64,000 nt of DNA from Candidatus Bathyarchaeia archaeon (GTDB lineage: Archaea > Thermoproteota > Bathyarchaeia > Bathyarchaeales > Bathycorpusculaceae): the NCBI GenBank assembly GCA_038883655.1, contig JAVZLQ010000002.1:153625-217624 (forward strand), read 5' to 3'. Every line of letters begins with the position of its first letter. Positions within the stretch are counted from its first letter, which is position 1. Below are positions 31,844-37,154 of the stretch, in pieces. A program made the translations under genes and the position numbers. A model generated the notes under the pieces. The model saw nothing but the letters and a program-made list of their open reading frames with translations, ran no database searches and had not been told where the DNA came from.

Positions 31844-32866
31844 ATGAAAGCTGCAGTATATTATAGCCAAAAGGACATTCGTGTCGAGAATTTGCCCATT
31901 CCAAAAATTGGTGAAGACGAAGCACTCGTGGAGATGAAGGCTTGTGGAATCTGCGGTTCAGACATGATGGAGTGGTACCTAAAAAGGCGTGCTCCACTTG
32001 TTCTTGGACATGAGCCAGCTGGCATAATAGCCAAAAAGGGAAGAAAGGTTAAAGATTTCAATGTTGGCGAAAGAGTTTTCGTCCATCATCATGTTGCTTG
32101 CCTGAAATGTCACTACTGCTTGCACGGCGATTACACGCTCTGCGAACAATTCCATAAAACGCACCTAGACCCAGGCGGATTTGCAGAATACTTCAGAGTG
32201 CCAGCTCCAAACCTTCAAATTGACACTTTAAAGATTCCAGAAAGCCTAACATTTGAGGAGGCAACATTCATAGAGCCAGTTGGCTGCTGCTTAAGAGCGA
32301 TAAAGAAATGCTGTTTGCAGGCCGGCGATTCCGTCGCTGTTATCGGCTCTGGAGTTATAGGGATAATCCATGTGGCGCTAACGAAAATTTTCGGAGCAAC
32401 AAAAATAGTTGCAAGCGACATTGTCGATTTTAGGCTTGAAGTGGCGAAAAAATTCGGTGCTGATGTGACAGTTAACCCTAAAAAGGAAAATTTAAAGAGC
32501 GTTGTTGAAGCTGAAACAGACGGGCTCGGAGTGGATGTTGTCTTTGTTACAGCCCCAAGCCTAGAAGCCTACAAGGCTGGCTTAAGCGTTTGCCGCAAAG
32601 GCGGAAAACTGTGCGTGTTCGCCCCAACAAGCTCCGAAGAAAAGCTTCAGCTAAGCCCAAAAGAGCTGTTCTTTTCAGAAATCAAAATAATCCCATCATA
32701 TTCGACTTCGCATTTAGAAACACGTTTGGCTTTGGAGCTAATAAAATCTGGAAAACTGAGTTTGAGGGAGTTAATTACGCATCGTTTTAGGCTTGAAGAG
32801 GCAGCTGAAGCCTTCAAAACAGCCCTAGAAAACAAAGAAAGCCTAAAAATCATAATACATAACTAG
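31844..32866 (+). CDS. Zn-dependent MDR alcohol/polyol dehydrogenase
   Basis: CGICGSD, GHE.AG, CLKCHYC..GDYTLC, GSGVIG. Confidence 0.9.
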   Translation: MKAAVYYSQKDIRVENLPIPKIGEDEALVEMKACGICGSDMMEWYLKRRAPLVLGHEPAGIIAKKGRKVKDFNVGERVFVHHHVACLKCHYCLHGDYTLCEQFHKTHLDPGGFAEYFRVPAPNLQIDTLKIPESLTFEEATFIEPVGCCLRAIKKCCLQAGDSVAVIGSGVIGIIHVALTKIFGATKIVASDIVDFRLEVAKKFGADVTVNPKKENLKSVVEAETDGLGVDVVFVTAPSLEAYKAGLSVCRKGGKLCVFAPTSSEEKLQLSPKELFFSEIKIIPSYSTSHLETRLALELIKSGKLSLRELITHRFRLEEAAEAFKTALENKESLKIIIHN

Positions 32867-33159: not shown

Positions 33160-34197
33160 GTGATACAAATGAAGGCTGCAATGCTTTATGGCGTAAAAGA
33201 CTTGCGAGTTGAAGATGTTCCAAAGCCAAAAGTTAACGCTGGCGAAGTCCTCGTTAAGGTTAAGGCGGCAACAACATGCGGAACAGACCTAAAAATTTTC
33301 CAGAGAGGCTACGTTGAGAAGGTGATAAGGCTTCCAACGGTTTTTGGGCATGAGTGGGCTGGCGAAGTTGTGGAAGTTAGCGAAGGCCTAGAATGGCCTA
33401 GGAAGAGTATGCGTGTGCGCGCTGGAAACAGCGCTCCATGTTTACATTGTGTGATGTGCCAGAAGGGAAAGTATAATCTTTGTGAGAACATGATTTGGCT
33501 TTGGGGTGCGTATGCGGAATACATTAAGGTTCCAGCGCGGATGGTTCTCGTCAACATGCAAGAGATTCCACCGCATGTTTCTTTTGAAGAGGCAGCCATA
33601 ACAGAGCCCTTAGCATGCGTTTTGCACGGAGTGGAAGAGGCTGGAGTTAGGCTTGGCGATAATGTGGCGATAATTGGCGCTGGACCAATAGGGTTGCTGC
33701 ACTTGTTAACTGTCAAGCGAGTTGGCGCCGAAAAGGTCATAATGATAGACCTCATTGAGGAAAGGTTGGATTTCGCGAAAAAGCTTGGCGCAGACGAAGT
33801 TGTCAACGCTGGAAAAGGCGACGTCGTGGAAAAGGTTAAACAGTTAACAGACGGTTATAGCGTTGACGTAGCAATAGAAGCCATTGGTTTGCCTCAAACG
33901 TGGGAGCAAGCCCTAAAACTCGTCAGAAAAGGCGGAAGAGTTTTAGAATTCGGCGGATGCCCGCCTGGAACAGAGATTAAAGTTAGCACGGAGATGCTTC
34001 ATTACGGGGAAGTCACGGTTCTAGGCACTTTTCACGCGACTCCGCTACATTTTAGGAAAGCCCTAAGCCTAATAGCCTCAAAAGCAATTGATGTTAGACC
34101 ATTAATAACAAGAAGGATGGGATTGGACGAAATTAGGGAAGCCTTCCAAATACTCGCCACATCAAAAAATGAAATTAAAATTGCAATAATTCCATAA
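33160..34197 (+). CDS. Zn-dependent MDR alcohol/polyol dehydrogenase
   Basis: CGTD, GHEWAG, CLHCVMC..GKYNLC, GAGPIG. Confidence 0.9.
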   Translation: MIQMKAAMLYGVKDLRVEDVPKPKVNAGEVLVKVKAATTCGTDLKIFQRGYVEKVIRLPTVFGHEWAGEVVEVSEGLEWPRKSMRVRAGNSAPCLHCVMCQKGKYNLCENMIWLWGAYAEYIKVPARMVLVNMQEIPPHVSFEEAAITEPLACVLHGVEEAGVRLGDNVAIIGAGPIGLLHLLTVKRVGAEKVIMIDLIEERLDFAKKLGADEVVNAGKGDVVEKVKQLTDGYSVDVAIEAIGLPQTWEQALKLVRKGGRVLEFGGCPPGTEIKVSTEMLHYGEVTVLGTFHATPLHFRKALSLIASKAIDVRPLITRRMGLDEIREAFQILATSKNEIKIAIIP

Positions 34198-34224: not shown

Positions 34225-34638
34225 TCAAAGCCACATGCATTTTGAGTACTCAACGTATTTTTGTACAAGATTTGTGGCATCATGCTCACCCATGCTGGGC
34301 GAATGTCGTGCACATAAATGGAACACCTGCACTCGATTGTCATTGAAAAGTTTGGAAATTTGAGCTCGCAATCCTACATGCCTACTTTCAAGACGCGCGA
34401 ACTGCACAGCGATTTTCTTAAGTCTAGATTCAAGGGTTCTTTTTTGCTCCTCTAATTCTTTGATTTTCTGTAGAAGTTGCTCCTCTGAGTAAGGAGACGC
34501 CATTCCAAGTTGTAGGACCTTCTGAATAAACGTTGTGTCGTTTACGGGAATTTTTAGCTTTTCAGCAAGTTCTAAAATCTCGCAGTTTTGGTCCACATAA
34601 ATTGTTTTCTGATCTTTCTTTAGTTTAATTTTAACCAA
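34225..34638 (-). CDS. Hypothetical coiled-coil protein ending in CMWL (gene 4 of the riboswitch operon)
   Basis: ORF begins 6 nt after the upstream stop; central coiled coil. Confidence 0.65.
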   Translation of the reverse strand: MVKIKLKKDQKTIYVDQNCEILELAEKLKIPVNDTTFIQKVLQLGMASPYSEEQLLQKIKELEEQKRTLESRLKKIAVQFARLESRHVGLRAQISKLFNDNRVQVFHLCARHSPSMGEHDATNLVQKYVEYSKCMWL

Positions 34639-34644
34639 AACTAA

Positions 34645-34920
34645 TCACCCTTTTCCATTCAAGAGCGCTTCAAGTTTTTCTTGATCTTCAATTAGCTCCT
34701 CCAGCATTCTTTCATCTCTTTTTATGTCGTTCGGCAGTTCCTTTACTCGCTTCTTTAGATACGTTATTCTCTCTTTTAGAGACAGCGTTTCATGCGCAAG
34801 GATTTGAATTCTGAGCGTGAGTAATCCTTTACGGATTATGCTTTCTGCCTGGTCGCCGAGGTTTTCGTATACCTTTGTCGGAATAAAGATTTTGGCACGT
34901 TTATTTTTAACATTGTTCAT
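34645..34920 (-). CDS. Hypothetical coiled-coil protein (gene 3 of the riboswitch operon)
   Basis: ATG at 34920 preceded by GGAGGT; overlaps the end of the DUF6062-like gene. Confidence 0.65.
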   Translation of the reverse strand: MNNVKNKRAKIFIPTKVYENLGDQAESIIRKGLLTLRIQILAHETLSLKERITYLKKRVKELPNDIKRDERMLEELIEDQEKLEALLNGKG

Positions 34921-35623
34921 TTGCAAGTGAACCTCCCGTAACGCTGATTCCTCTTCTACCGACGATTCTCTGAACACTCCTTAAAGGCACGTCTTCTACA
35001 CTTTTTCGATCCGCTTCTGAGAACTCATAGCTTTGCCGTCTAATATATTCGGAGAGTTCTGATTGTAAACGTTGAAGATTTCTCTCTTCAACCTCAACAA
35101 TGATTTTGATGGTTTCTTGATTATGCGTTGTATTCTTCAGCATTTTAAATAAAAGTGCAAAGTGAGGGATGCAAAGACTTTTGGAATCCTTGAAAAGTTT
35201 GAGAAATTCTTCGCTATGTGAAGATAGCAGTTCAATGATTTTTTTAATGTAGACTTTCATGAAACTGGCTAGATGGGTGCATGCGGGACAGTTGGCTGTT
35301 CGGATGGAAATCTCTCCCTGATTCTTTCTTTGCTTATGCAAGTCATGGAGAAGCCTTTCTATAATACTTTGCGTGATTAGGGCTATTCCGTGACCATCTG
35401 AGCTTCCAGGTTTTGCAGCCGTTATCAGCATTCTGTAAAAGTGATGATTGCAGAATCCTCCACTTTTAACAAGTTTTTCTCTTGCTTTAGAGTCCATTAC
35501 AAGCTCGGAAAGATAAGTGTCTATGTATTTTCTTTCAATTTCATCTTCTAATGCGCAAAGAAAACATTCTGCATCGCTTTTGATTATTCTTTCAATGCGG
35601 GGGTATGTTACGTCAATGCTCAT
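34907..35623 (-). CDS. DUF6062-like Cys/His protein
   Basis: Duplicated motifs CFLC...GFCNHH and CPAC...LCIPH, and C-terminal L.EYIRR..YEF. Confidence 0.7.
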   Translation of the reverse strand: MSIDVTYPRIERIIKSDAECFLCALEDEIERKYIDTYLSELVMDSKAREKLVKSGGFCNHHFYRMLITAAKPGSSDGHGIALITQSIIERLLHDLHKQRKNQGEISIRTANCPACTHLASFMKVYIKKIIELLSSHSEEFLKLFKDSKSLCIPHFALLFKMLKNTTHNQETIKIIVEVEERNLQRLQSELSEYIRRQSYEFSEADRKSVEDVPLRSVQRIVGRRGISVTGGSLANEQC

Positions 35624-35627
35624 GCAG

Positions 35628-36503
35628 TCACCACTGTTCTCTAATTTTCTTTAATACTGTTACAGCGTATAAGGTGTCTTCAAAAGTGGATATCCCAATG
35701 TCTGATCTTGCAAATCCGCCGTTTGCATTTTGACATTTAAGAACAAAATCAGCTGTCTGGTTTGGATATTTTAAGCGCTTGCCAAGAATATTAAGCGTCA
35801 TTGTTCCGTAGTAAGTATGTTCCATGTATGGAGTGGAACTATTAGGCACCACGGTGAAGCCTCCATAAGGCTTTTCGCATGCCCTAACATAATCGAGAGT
35901 TTCCTTAAGCGACTTAACTGGATAACCAAGATTAAAAAGTGAAGCCACAGCATGATAGGTAGAATTCAAATTCGAATGTCCATAAGCCCCAAAACCACCA
36001 TCAATGTTTTTGAAACTCAGCAACCACTCCGTAATCTTCTCATAGTTAACTTCTACACCGACAATTTTAGCAAGCTCGATTGCCATAAGCGCTAAGAGAA
36101 ATTCCGAGGCAACCTCAACATAAACGTCGATGGTTTCAAATTCGCCTTTGACAACTGGCAGAGAAAGAACAAACTTTTTCAAGTTTTTTCCGTTCGGCTT
36201 TTCACCGCACAGTCTTAAGGCTTTGGCTACATAGTAATGCGAGTAAAGGTTTTCTGCGGCAAAACTGCATAGCCATTCAACAGTCTTTTCAACATTTGGA
36301 AAAGGAGTGTCTAACAAATCCAAAATTGCCAACCCATAATACGTATCTTGGGCGTTAGATTCTGTGCCTTGGCAGAAAGCGTATCCACCATCCTCATTCT
36401 GCCGACTAACAACATAGTTAACTACACGTTTACTCCATAGGTCAGCATGTCGCGTATTTTCCAAAACCGCAAACCGCCCCACTTCAGGCAACCTGTCATT
36501 CAC
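35628..36503 (-). CDS. Prenyltransferase/squalene-oxidase repeat protein (COG1689-like)
   Basis: Repeats RQNEDGGY, FKNIDGGF, CEKPYGGF, CQNANGGF, each followed by a TY/TL helix. The in-frame TTG at 36491 lies 8 nt after an SD-like GGTGA. Confidence 0.8.
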   Translation of the reverse strand: MNDRLPEVGRFAVLENTRHADLWSKRVVNYVVSRQNEDGGYAFCQGTESNAQDTYYGLAILDLLDTPFPNVEKTVEWLCSFAAENLYSHYYVAKALRLCGEKPNGKNLKKFVLSLPVVKGEFETIDVYVEVASEFLLALMAIELAKIVGVEVNYEKITEWLLSFKNIDGGFGAYGHSNLNSTYHAVASLFNLGYPVKSLKETLDYVRACEKPYGGFTVVPNSSTPYMEHTYYGTMTLNILGKRLKYPNQTADFVLKCQNANGGFARSDIGISTFEDTLYAVTVLKKIREQW

Positions 36504-36523
36504 CCATATACTTTTGAAACTGG

Positions 36524-36585
36524 GTAGAAGCTATCAGCCCCTGCACATGCAGAAGCAAGGGCGGTTAAAGGCGAGCTTCATCGCC
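36524..36585 (-). ncRNA. Fluoride riboswitch (crcB RNA motif)
   Basis: GGCGAUGAAGCUCGCCUUUAACCGCCCUUGCUUCUGCAUGUGCAGGGGCUGAUAGCUUCUAC: P1 GGCGA/UCGCC, AACCGC junction, P2 GCCCUUGC/GCAGGGGC, GCUGAU, pseudoknot GAAGCU/AGCUUC, 3' UAC. Confidence 0.92.
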
Positions 36586-36612
36586 TTGAATTTTATAGAG
36601 CCTCAAAGAGTA

Positions 36613-36628
36613 AATATAAACATTTCTT
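36613..36628 (-). promoter_or_regulatory. BRE/TATA promoter of the riboswitch operon
   Basis: Minus strand AAGAAATG-TTTATATT, about 28 nt upstream of the aptamer start. Confidence 0.6.
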
Positions 36629-36746
36629 ACTAACCTTTAATTTTCTCATTTCCACTCATGTTAGCCATGGAATTTAATTGAAAGCAACAATATTTTAATT
36701 AAATGTTATTAGGAGTAAATGTTAATCTATGGTATGGTGTTGTGGC

Positions 36747-37154
36747 GTGAAGTTTACTTATACTGGTATCCGCGTCAGGAACTTAGAGCGTTCGGTAGAG
36801 TTTTATACAAAAATAATGGGCATGAAAATAGTGCGTAGGGGTACGATGGAGGCAGGCGGCGTCTATGTGCAGCTAAAAAGCGAAAAATCACCGCAGGTTT
36901 TAGAGCTGAACTATTATCCGCTTGGAACAAAGTTTTATGAGGAATATGTTGCTGGTTCCGAGCTTGACCACTTGGCTTTTTGGTGCAAAGACGTCCGAAA
37001 AGAGTATAGGCGTGTTCTCGCTGGTGGCGCAACTCCGGCTGTCGAGCCATGGGACGAGAATGGTTATACGTTGGCGTTTGTTAGAGATCCTGACGGAATT
37101 TGGATTGAGCTTATAGGGCGAGCCATCAAAAGTAAGCGTAAAGCTGAGCCTTAA
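36747..37154 (+). CDS. VOC/glyoxalase family protein
   Basis: GIRVRNLERSVEFYT, LELNY, DHLAF, AFVRDPDGIWIEL. Confidence 0.88.
   Translation: MKFTYTGIRVRNLERSVEFYTKIMGMKIVRRGTMEAGGVYVQLKSEKSPQVLELNYYPLGTKFYEEYVAGSELDHLAFWCKDVRKEYRRVLAGGATPAVEPWDENGYTLAFVRDPDGIWIELIGRAIKSKRKAEP

Follow-up and report, generated by a model that had tools for sequence, protein, structure and literature searches.

Known resistance to fluoride consists of export by Fluc/CrcB, CLC-F or FEX, together with extra copies of enzymes that fluoride inhibits. Described fluoride riboswitches lie in the 5' leader, where they are expected to turn genes on (PMC2864571, PMC7266159). In Thermococcus kodakarensis, the riboswitch stands upstream of TK0513 rather than of crcB (TK0514), a position that puzzled the authors (PMC4247193), and regulation by this riboswitch is presumed to be translational (PMC8241225). 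The locus described here lies in a stretch of 64,000 nucleotides (nt) from Candidatus Bathyarchaeia archaeon (contig JAVZLQ010000002.1), the whole of which is called the window. On its minus strand a fluoride riboswitch (crcB motif, RF01734) is followed by four closely packed genes. The first encodes a prenyltransferase-repeat protein (PT), the second a DUF6062 protein, and the last two encode small proteins termed cc1 and cc2. How does a fluoride riboswitch placed before four soluble proteins compare with the described systems?

The riboswitch and its operon

Scanned with cmscan at the Rfam gathering thresholds, the whole window has two matches, RF01734 and one tRNA. The RF01734 match lies on the minus strand at 36518-36594, reaches 51.3 bits where the cut-off is 34 (E 2.7e-11) and spans model positions 1-64 of 64, i.e. 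the full model with its conserved core. P1 (GGCG/CGCC) and P2 (GCCC/GGGC) are paired in the cmscan alignment. The Rfam model gives no score to the pseudoknot, which was read by eye: GAAGCU in the P1 loop (36574-36579) is complementary to AGCUUC in the 3' tail (36527-36532). A genome-wide scan finds a single RF01734 in the source genome (G000; 1.42 Mb, 19 contigs, 93.25% complete, 6.51% contamination). The predicted fluoride riboswitch at the 5' end of a putative four-gene mRNA is considered genuine. The features, with open reading frames (ORFs) in amino acids (aa), are as follows.

36613..36620, minus strand: TATA-like box TTTATATT, about 27 nt 5' of P1, as read from the letters
36518..36594, minus strand: fluoride riboswitch aptamer (crcB motif), with P1 at 36570-36585, P2 at 36537-36562 and pseudoknot strands at 36574-36579 and 36527-36532
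35628..36503, minus strand: PT; mechanical ORF from GTG 36503 (291 aa), likelier start TTG 36491 (287 aa)
34907..35623, minus strand: DUF6062 protein (PF19538), 238 aa
34645..34977, minus strand: cc1, no family; mechanical ORF from GTG 34977, likely start ATG 34920 (91 aa)
34225..34638, minus strand: cc2, no family, last gene of the operon, 137 aa
34164..34169, minus strand: run of six T, a possible archaeal termination signal read by eye, about 55 nt past the cc2 stop

The four genes leave hardly any space between them. PT and the DUF6062 gene are 4 nt apart (end 35628, start 35623), cc1 overlaps the end of the DUF6062 gene (34907) by 14 nt if it starts at ATG 34920, and 6 nt separate cc1 from cc2 (end 34645, start 34638). 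This spacing and the conserved gene order point to co-transcription. The transcript probably starts at the aptamer or just before it; A/T-rich TATA-like boxes stand at an equal distance in the leaders of related loci. As to where PT begins, gene calls in homologues (P0002, P0073, P0090, P0106) start at a TTG two codons before a conserved E-V-G-R motif, and TTG 36491 of the window stands 8-9 nt after a Shine-Dalgarno-like GGGUG.

Much of this had been proposed in a sequence-only reading of the window, and the proposals held up. The aptamer that it drew at 36524-36585 (minus strand) falls inside the cmscan match, and the covariance score on which it let that aptamer stand or fall is far over threshold. 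The pairing it described for P1, P2 and the pseudoknot is that of the cmscan alignment and of the two complementary strands, and its TATA box, set some 28 nt upstream of the aptamer, corresponds to the one at 36613-36620. Its gene gaps of 4, -14 and 6 nt are all as stated, the second of them with the cc1 start at ATG 34920. The identities it gave to the first two genes agree with Pfam (PT to PF00432 at 93.9 bits, cut-off 26.5; the second gene to PF19538 at 119.8 bits, cut-off 27). It had also called all four proteins soluble: none has a 19-residue Kyte-Doolittle window above 1.71, the highest hydropathy being that of PT, whose model is a soluble toroid.

Association with PT in other genomes, and the search for exporters

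Is the riboswitch tied to PT elsewhere? In 61 related genomes of the same order, all of them metagenome-assembled, RF01734 occurs in 11, and a PT profile likewise finds PT in 11. Sixteen RF01734 sites outside the source genome, 13 above cut-off and 3 below, had their downstream ORFs compared with the four window proteins. Ten of the 13 stand before a PT homologue (one PT is split and one site has a NUDIX gene first); of the remaining three, two lie before CrcB-like genes (G060, G033) and one before an MFS_1 gene (G003). No intact, completely assembled PT gene in these genomes lacks an RF01734 in front of it. The only copies with no detected riboswitch are in G008, where the gene is broken, and G014, where it is cut by the contig start. 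The G008 homologue (G008:C33:43155-44010) is broken by an internal TAG and split into two frames, no RF01734 was found in that genome, and the gene looks like a decaying copy.

Public genomes, taken as one per species, add 26 loci that encode a PT relative, 23 of them labelled Bathyarchaeia, Bathyarchaeota or Bathyarchaeales, and one each Freyarchaeota, Nanoarchaeia and uncultured archaeon. RF01734 lies upstream on the same strand in 22; in 21 of these the aptamer adjoins the PT gene, and in L050 a NUDIX gene stands between. PT is the first gene after the riboswitch except in L050 and in L023, where a 66-codon ORF comes first. The public and relatives counts overlap, since no fewer than three contigs (L034, L047, L050) also belong to the relatives set.

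Further afield, a search of 1.84 billion representative proteins returned 1190 PT relatives at E <= 0.001, of which 37 were at E <= 1e-30. A distant clade, with eight representatives that are 39-53% identical to each other and 28-36% to the window PT, yields 80 metagenome loci, near-duplicate contigs among them. Rfam was applied to all 80: at least one RF01734 is held by 51, it is upstream on the same strand in 47, and within 200 nt in 28. Where at least 2300 nt of upstream sequence is available, 26 of 39 loci have it. The link between PT and the riboswitch spans Bathyarchaeia, one Asgard record and the distant metagenome clade. Because a fluoride riboswitch precedes the family in most loci examined, PT can be regarded as a dedicated fluoride-response protein, a conserved effector in what looks like a further form of the fluoride regulon.

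What accompanies PT? DUF6062 is its most frequent partner. It comes next after PT at 15 of 34 loci whose gene order was compared, and it is present in 8 of the 61 related genomes as nine copies, eight of which are beside PT. After DUF6062 come one or more of cc1/cc2, a second small-protein pair (c9/c10), a 107-aa protein, MFS_1, CrcB with DUF190, and NUDIX; in L053 the order is riboswitch, PT, CrcB, DUF190. Genome G002 has two riboswitch-PT-DUF6062 operons, L026/L034 (G002:C3:140-3418) and L025 (G002:C10), and one of these copies carries cc1/cc2 and c9/c10 in tandem. A further observation concerns an MFS_1 family of about 400-430 aa, which has a fluoride riboswitch of its own at L030:1547-3691 (G003), L048:5496-6859 and L049:1454-2874. 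The same family closes several PT operons, and may be a transporter with a link to fluoride that belongs to neither Fluc nor CLC.

In the distant clade the commonest neighbour, with 36 members in the 80 loci, is a dynamin-family GTPase that often lies between riboswitch and PT. An HIT protein (21), enolase (13) and a distant DUF6062 (12) also recur, as do an AAA/STAND ATPase, a zinc-ribbon plus HEAT protein, MFS_1, a Na+/H+ exchanger and glutamine synthetase. In L112, L115, L116, L132 and L136 three RF01734 aptamers lie within 2-5 kb on both strands, and they control or adjoin genes for the dynamin-family GTPase, HIT, enolase, Na+/H+ exchanger, glutamine synthetase and AAA/STAND ATPase. Enolase and Na+/H+ exchangers are gene types already linked with the fluoride riboswitch, so their presence anchors these islands to fluoride. 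Dynamin-like GTPases, HIT proteins and glutamine synthetase are, to our knowledge, not usual members of fluoride regulons.

Profile searches for CrcB (PF02537) and CLC (PF00654) gave no match in the source genome; in 14 control genomes the same searches matched CrcB in 11 and CLC in 12. Three other genomes of the genus (G001, G002, G003; 95-98% complete) have no CrcB and no CLC above cut-off, the lone signal being one sub-cut-off CLC match in G003. Exporters do exist within the order, with CrcB in 6 and CLC in 7 of the 61 genomes searched. The sequence-only reading had noted that the window lacks a fluoride exporter and had pointed to a genome-wide search for fluc and eriC. Its remark can now be widened to the whole genome, where neither family was matched, and extended to the three genus mates, where neither was above cut-off. 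It had also made its interpretation depend on a riboswitch association conserved in relatives, which is seen at 10 of 13 related sites, at 22 of 26 public loci and in the distant PT clade. Its proposal of an uncharacterised, non-exporter fluoride-stress module is favoured, given an aptamer score above threshold, a conserved association and no exporter above cut-off in four genomes of the genus. The two mechanisms that it offered as examples, shielding of a Mg/PPi enzyme and partnership with an exporter, are conjecture.

Window DNA was present only in hot-spring metagenome runs when sequencing runs were searched; geothermal waters are commonly rich in fluoride. Two runs labelled metatranscriptomic were flagged as probably DNA; they were kept as contigs and say nothing on transcripts. 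In four hot-spring runs the summed contig depth is 88-1034 over the aptamer bin (window 36475-36581) as against about 3-28 in the gene body, and loose contig ends mark both borders of the aptamer (36520-36524 and 36585-36586). It seems that many different contexts in the hot-spring communities have an almost identical aptamer core in common.

As for the surroundings of the operon, two ORFs resembling zinc-type alcohol dehydrogenases, at 31844-32866 and 33160-34197 on the plus strand, converge on its end; Pfam was applied to the second only. The six-T run sits within the 3' end of this second, convergent gene. Upstream of the riboswitch is a glyoxalase-family gene (36729-37154, plus strand). 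In L040 (1153-3794), L042, L046, L047, L050 and L057 a sugar-phosphate nucleotidyltransferase with hexapeptide repeats and a phosphoglucomutase/phosphomannomutase lie upstream on the opposite strand, and a PfkB kinase lies downstream, also on the opposite strand. These neighbours may be only shared synteny among relatives.

The proteins and the expression platform

PT matches PF00432 and, at 28.4 bits, also SQHop_cyclase_C in Pfam. Its predicted model has twelve helices (pLDDT 89.6, pTM 0.87). The best Foldseek matches are beta subunits of GGTase-III and RabGGTase (E from 1.3e-8, TM up to 0.75), followed by FTase beta, and by squalene-hopene cyclases (8paj, 8pak) and the single-barrel terpene cyclase MstE, the cyclase matches having E values of 3e-7 to 8e-5. 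An Atlas search with PT gave prenyltransferase-like clusters only. On the model, PT is a single (alpha/alpha)6 toroid with a prenyltransferase-beta-like fold. The motifs RQNxDGGY, SNxxDTYYAL, NxDGGFG, CE..GGF and CQNxNGGFxRS..GISTLExTYYA are kept in 34 representatives that are 28-51% identical to the window PT, and most of the conserved residues are part of the structural repeat motif.

Does the fold make PT a prenyltransferase? RabGGTase beta aligns with PT residues 26-284 (phmmer E 8e-9), and the zinc ligands of the rat protein, which we take to be D238, C240 and H290, face Y226, E228 and D276 in this alignment. In the PT family alignment Y226 and E228 are nearly invariant and position 276 is variable. 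The source genome, 93% complete, has no match to the PPTA alpha subunit (PF01239), and PT is its sole PF00432 gene. Since the zinc ligands are not kept and the genome has no alpha subunit, PT should not be filed as a prenyltransferase. Nor was the DxDD motif of class II terpene cyclases seen in alignments of 28 and 35 PT family members, and NCBIfam cyclase models are far under cut-off on PT (32.8 vs 322.7).

The DUF6062 protein covers profile positions 10-239 of 243 in PF19538. Eight residues are invariant in 27 sequences, C20, C23, C58, H61, C112, C115, C151 and H154. They make up two CxxC plus CxxH pairs at helix starts and probably form two Cys3His metal sites. The model is all-helical, with 12 helices (pLDDT 83.5). 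No convincing fold match was found in the PDB (Foldseek best E 0.39; wide VIA-align best Z 4.8), the rows being generic helical repeats. Prediction of a PT-DUF6062 complex scored 0.00 in both runs, which counts neither for nor against binding. A protein of 403 aa with both PF00432 and PF19538 (P0089) was considered as a natural PT-DUF6062 fusion and rejected: its PT is complete, and its DUF6062 part begins mid-domain and has neither the first CxxC nor the C-terminus. Deletion or chimeric assembly may account for this protein, which is not used as evidence.

Neither cc1 nor cc2 has a family above cut-off in Pfam or NCBIfam, and an Atlas search with cc2 gave no usable match. Homologues stand at the equivalent position in other loci (cc1 in L026/L034, L024 and L020; cc2 in L034, L024, L020 and L041). 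Elsewhere the pair c9/c10 takes this position, and L034 has both pairs in tandem. Common ancestry of the two pairs is not supported by hhalign: c9 and c10 align with each other at a probability of 89.5, and the other four pairs of families reach 1-29%.

How might the RNA control these genes? The elements of a possible expression platform are as follows.

36552..36566, minus strand: 5' strand of a proposed anti-aptamer helix, AACCGCCC.UGCUUC, which includes the 5' strand of P2
36472..36485, minus strand: 3' strand of this helix, GAAGUGGGGCGGUU, at codons 3-7 (E V G R F) after TTG 36491
36501..36526, minus strand: Shine-Dalgarno hairpin, in which the aptamer 3' tail UACCCA (36521-36526) pairs with UGGGUG (36501-36506)

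The proposed helix and the aptamer would be mutually exclusive, because the helix takes up the 5' strand of P2. The window duplex has an energy of -21.8 kcal/mol, with a z of -2.72 against dinucleotide shuffles. For the best duplex that the aptamer stretch can form with the 90 nt downstream, z averages -2.3 over 30 distinct leaders and is below -2 in 17 of them. The minimum-free-energy fold of the 135-nt leader (-47.9 kcal/mol, z -2.21) holds both the 14-bp helix and the Shine-Dalgarno hairpin, the latter being also in the centroid fold. An RNAalifold consensus keeps the helix in 15 of 15 aligned leaders, and 98.6% of the alignment cells pair at the helix vs 34-53% with the partner slid. At the helix site all 15 leaders use GGG, and 14 of them use CGG; these are the rarest glycine and arginine codons in the long ORFs of the window (9.6% and 6.2%). 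Such fixed rare codons hint at a constraint on the RNA. In a second group of leaders it is the tail that pairs with the start region instead.

These foldings suggest a translational ON switch. Without fluoride, the 5' strand of P2 would pair with PT codons 3-7, and the 3' tail of the aptamer with the Shine-Dalgarno sequence. Fluoride would lock the aptamer and its pseudoknot, which would free the ribosome site and turn translation on.

Possible function, and comparison with known systems

What, then, do the four proteins do? It is moderately probable that they form a cytoplasmic, catalytic complex for protection or damage control, switched by fluoride. Its task could be to support reactions that need Mg or phosphate and are blocked by fluoride, or to clear away a toxic species that arises from fluoride. 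Since no Fluc/CrcB or CLC is above cut-off in the genus, the cell interior is the most likely site of action. The proposal of protection or damage control draws on the neighbours of PT in other genomes: these are for the most part nucleotide hydrolases or enzymes dependent on Mg and phosphate (enolase, glutamine synthetase, HIT, NUDIX), and ion and pH transporters are also among them. We do not think that the module is an exporter or a stoichiometric sink. The sink is set aside on general grounds, as amounts of protein are far below toxic concentrations of fluoride.

Several points weigh against this interpretation. Fluoride binding, induction and co-transcription have all been inferred from sequence, and the sequences of PT and DUF6062 say nothing of their activity. 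The catalytic protective complex is itself a guess, reached by exclusion (no membrane segments, too little protein for a sink) and from HIT, NUDIX and enolase neighbours. In the source genome taken by itself, which is 93% complete, an exporter may have been missed. RF01734 is lacking, even at E <= 1, in 4 of the 26 public PT loci, and in 13 of the 39 distant-clade loci with sufficient upstream sequence. Counts of loci overstate the number of independent events, because many loci are related or duplicate contigs (near-duplicates are L062-L065, L076/L078 and L132/L133). With respect to the switch, pairing of the tail with the downstream Shine-Dalgarno region is weak over the 30 leaders (mean z -0.87; 7 of 30 below -1.5). 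Covariation in the anti-aptamer helix does not exceed shuffles, 324 of 500 of which reach the observed score, so that the helix is conserved but not proven by compensatory change. Both of its strands are otherwise constrained, one by the aptamer and the other by coding sequence.

A narrower proposal is possible, though doubtful: that the PT toroid, with DUF6062 as a metal-binding partner, is the core of an exporter-independent enzyme or complex for fluoride defence in archaea without Fluc or CLC-F. The toxic species removed or prevented could be metal-fluoride or fluorophosphate adducts on nucleotides or on phosphoryl-transfer enzymes. If true, resistance to fluoride would take a third form, in addition to export and the overproduction of target enzymes.

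Could the soluble proteins be accessories that regulate, load or assemble an exporter encoded elsewhere, e.g. MFS_1 or CrcB, with resistance still achieved by export? This is unlikely, yet of the alternatives it survives best. An MFS_1 gene is in or right beside the PT operon at 10 loci (cluster c2; PF07690, 140.7 bits), the operon runs on into CrcB and DUF190 in L053 and L047, and the MFS_1 family has its own riboswitch at three loci (L030, L048, L049). The source genome, however, encodes no orthologue of this MFS; the nearest protein it has is a generic MFS on another contig, with 26% identity. Neither CrcB nor CLC exceeds its cut-off in any of the four genus genomes, and the neighbours of PT are so varied that no single transporter travels with it.

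Next in order, and rather improbable, is a barrier response in place of detoxification, in which PT would be a terpenoid cyclase or a prenyl binder that works on isoprenoid lipids and alters the archaeal membrane, such that less hydrogen fluoride (HF) diffuses in. The structural matches to squalene-hopene cyclases and MstE and the SQHop_cyclase_C score of 28.4 bits are in keeping with this. So is the commonest neighbour in the distant clade, since dynamin-family GTPases are of a membrane-remodelling type, and the Na+/H+ exchangers of the islands fit a response to pH or HF entry. PT itself offers little to such a role: its family alignments show no DxDD motif, the zinc-ligand positions of prenyltransferases are not kept, there is no membrane anchor, and most of its conserved residues belong to the structural repeat.

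Regulation at a distance has also to be weighed. DUF6062 with cc1 and cc2 could be fluoride-induced regulators of distant genes, PT serving as sensor or cofactor. There is a single RF01734 in the source genome, where such an extension of the response would count, the small proteins are rich in charged residues with short N-terminal domains, and the c9/c10 pair (hhalign 89.5 with each other) occurs in the equivalent position and in tandem with cc1/cc2 in L034. We hold this to be very unlikely, as no DNA-binding family is matched at E <= 0.1 in Pfam or NCBIfam, the cc2 Atlas search gave no usable match, most PT loci lack the small proteins, and the DUF6062 model matches no regulator fold. Least credible of all is that the link is incidental or not about fluoride, with an aptamer that senses another ligand or an exporter missing from incomplete assemblies: all the genomes are metagenome-assembled (the source at 93% complete and 6.5% contamination) and the ligand of these RNAs is assigned by sequence, but the full RF01734 model is matched with its conserved core, the same aptamers precede CrcB in related genomes, those of the metagenomes share islands with enolase and Na+/H+ exchanger genes, and all four genus genomes are without CrcB or an above-cut-off CLC.

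A fluoride-switched protective complex stays the preferred interpretation, and its interest goes beyond this locus. In an entire genus of hot-spring Bathyarchaeia a fluoride sensor is retained and no exporter is recognisable, and few unknowns in the fluoride regulon are as clearly marked as the PT family together with DUF6062. Since the riboswitch ligand tells when the proteins are needed, what they do can be tested directly. If they act catalytically, they would provide a new mechanism and also tools for fluoride tolerance in engineered microbes.

Comparison with characterized proteins begins with the beta subunits of protein prenyltransferases (RabGGTase, GGTase-I/III, FTase), with which PT shares the (alpha/alpha)6 toroid and the repeated GGF motifs. 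PT differs from them in being shorter (about 290 aa), in having its zinc ligands replaced and in seemingly standing alone, without an alpha subunit. The second protein is a clear member of DUF6062 (PF19538), whose link to fluoride riboswitches and PT was found in this analysis. Among the papers listed by the literature searches, none connects the fluoride riboswitch to prenyltransferase-like proteins, to DUF6062 or to Bathyarchaeota; the PT family may already be named in the gene lists of Weinberg 2010 or Baker 2012.

In T. kodakarensis, crcB lies beside TK0513, whereas the genus of the window is without crcB. The order riboswitch-PT-CrcB-DUF190 in L053 would match the T. kodakarensis arrangement if TK0513 were a PT homologue, and this may explain why the validated riboswitch there precedes TK0513 instead of crcB. 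The homology is a possible lead. With the fluoride riboswitch regulons at large, the window shares an aptamer of the same family, likewise placed in the 5' leader, and aptamers of its relatives precede CrcB. It departs from them in what appears to be controlled, four soluble proteins in a genome without Fluc or CLC-F matches, and in its predicted platform, which would hide the ribosome site and first codons, not a terminator.

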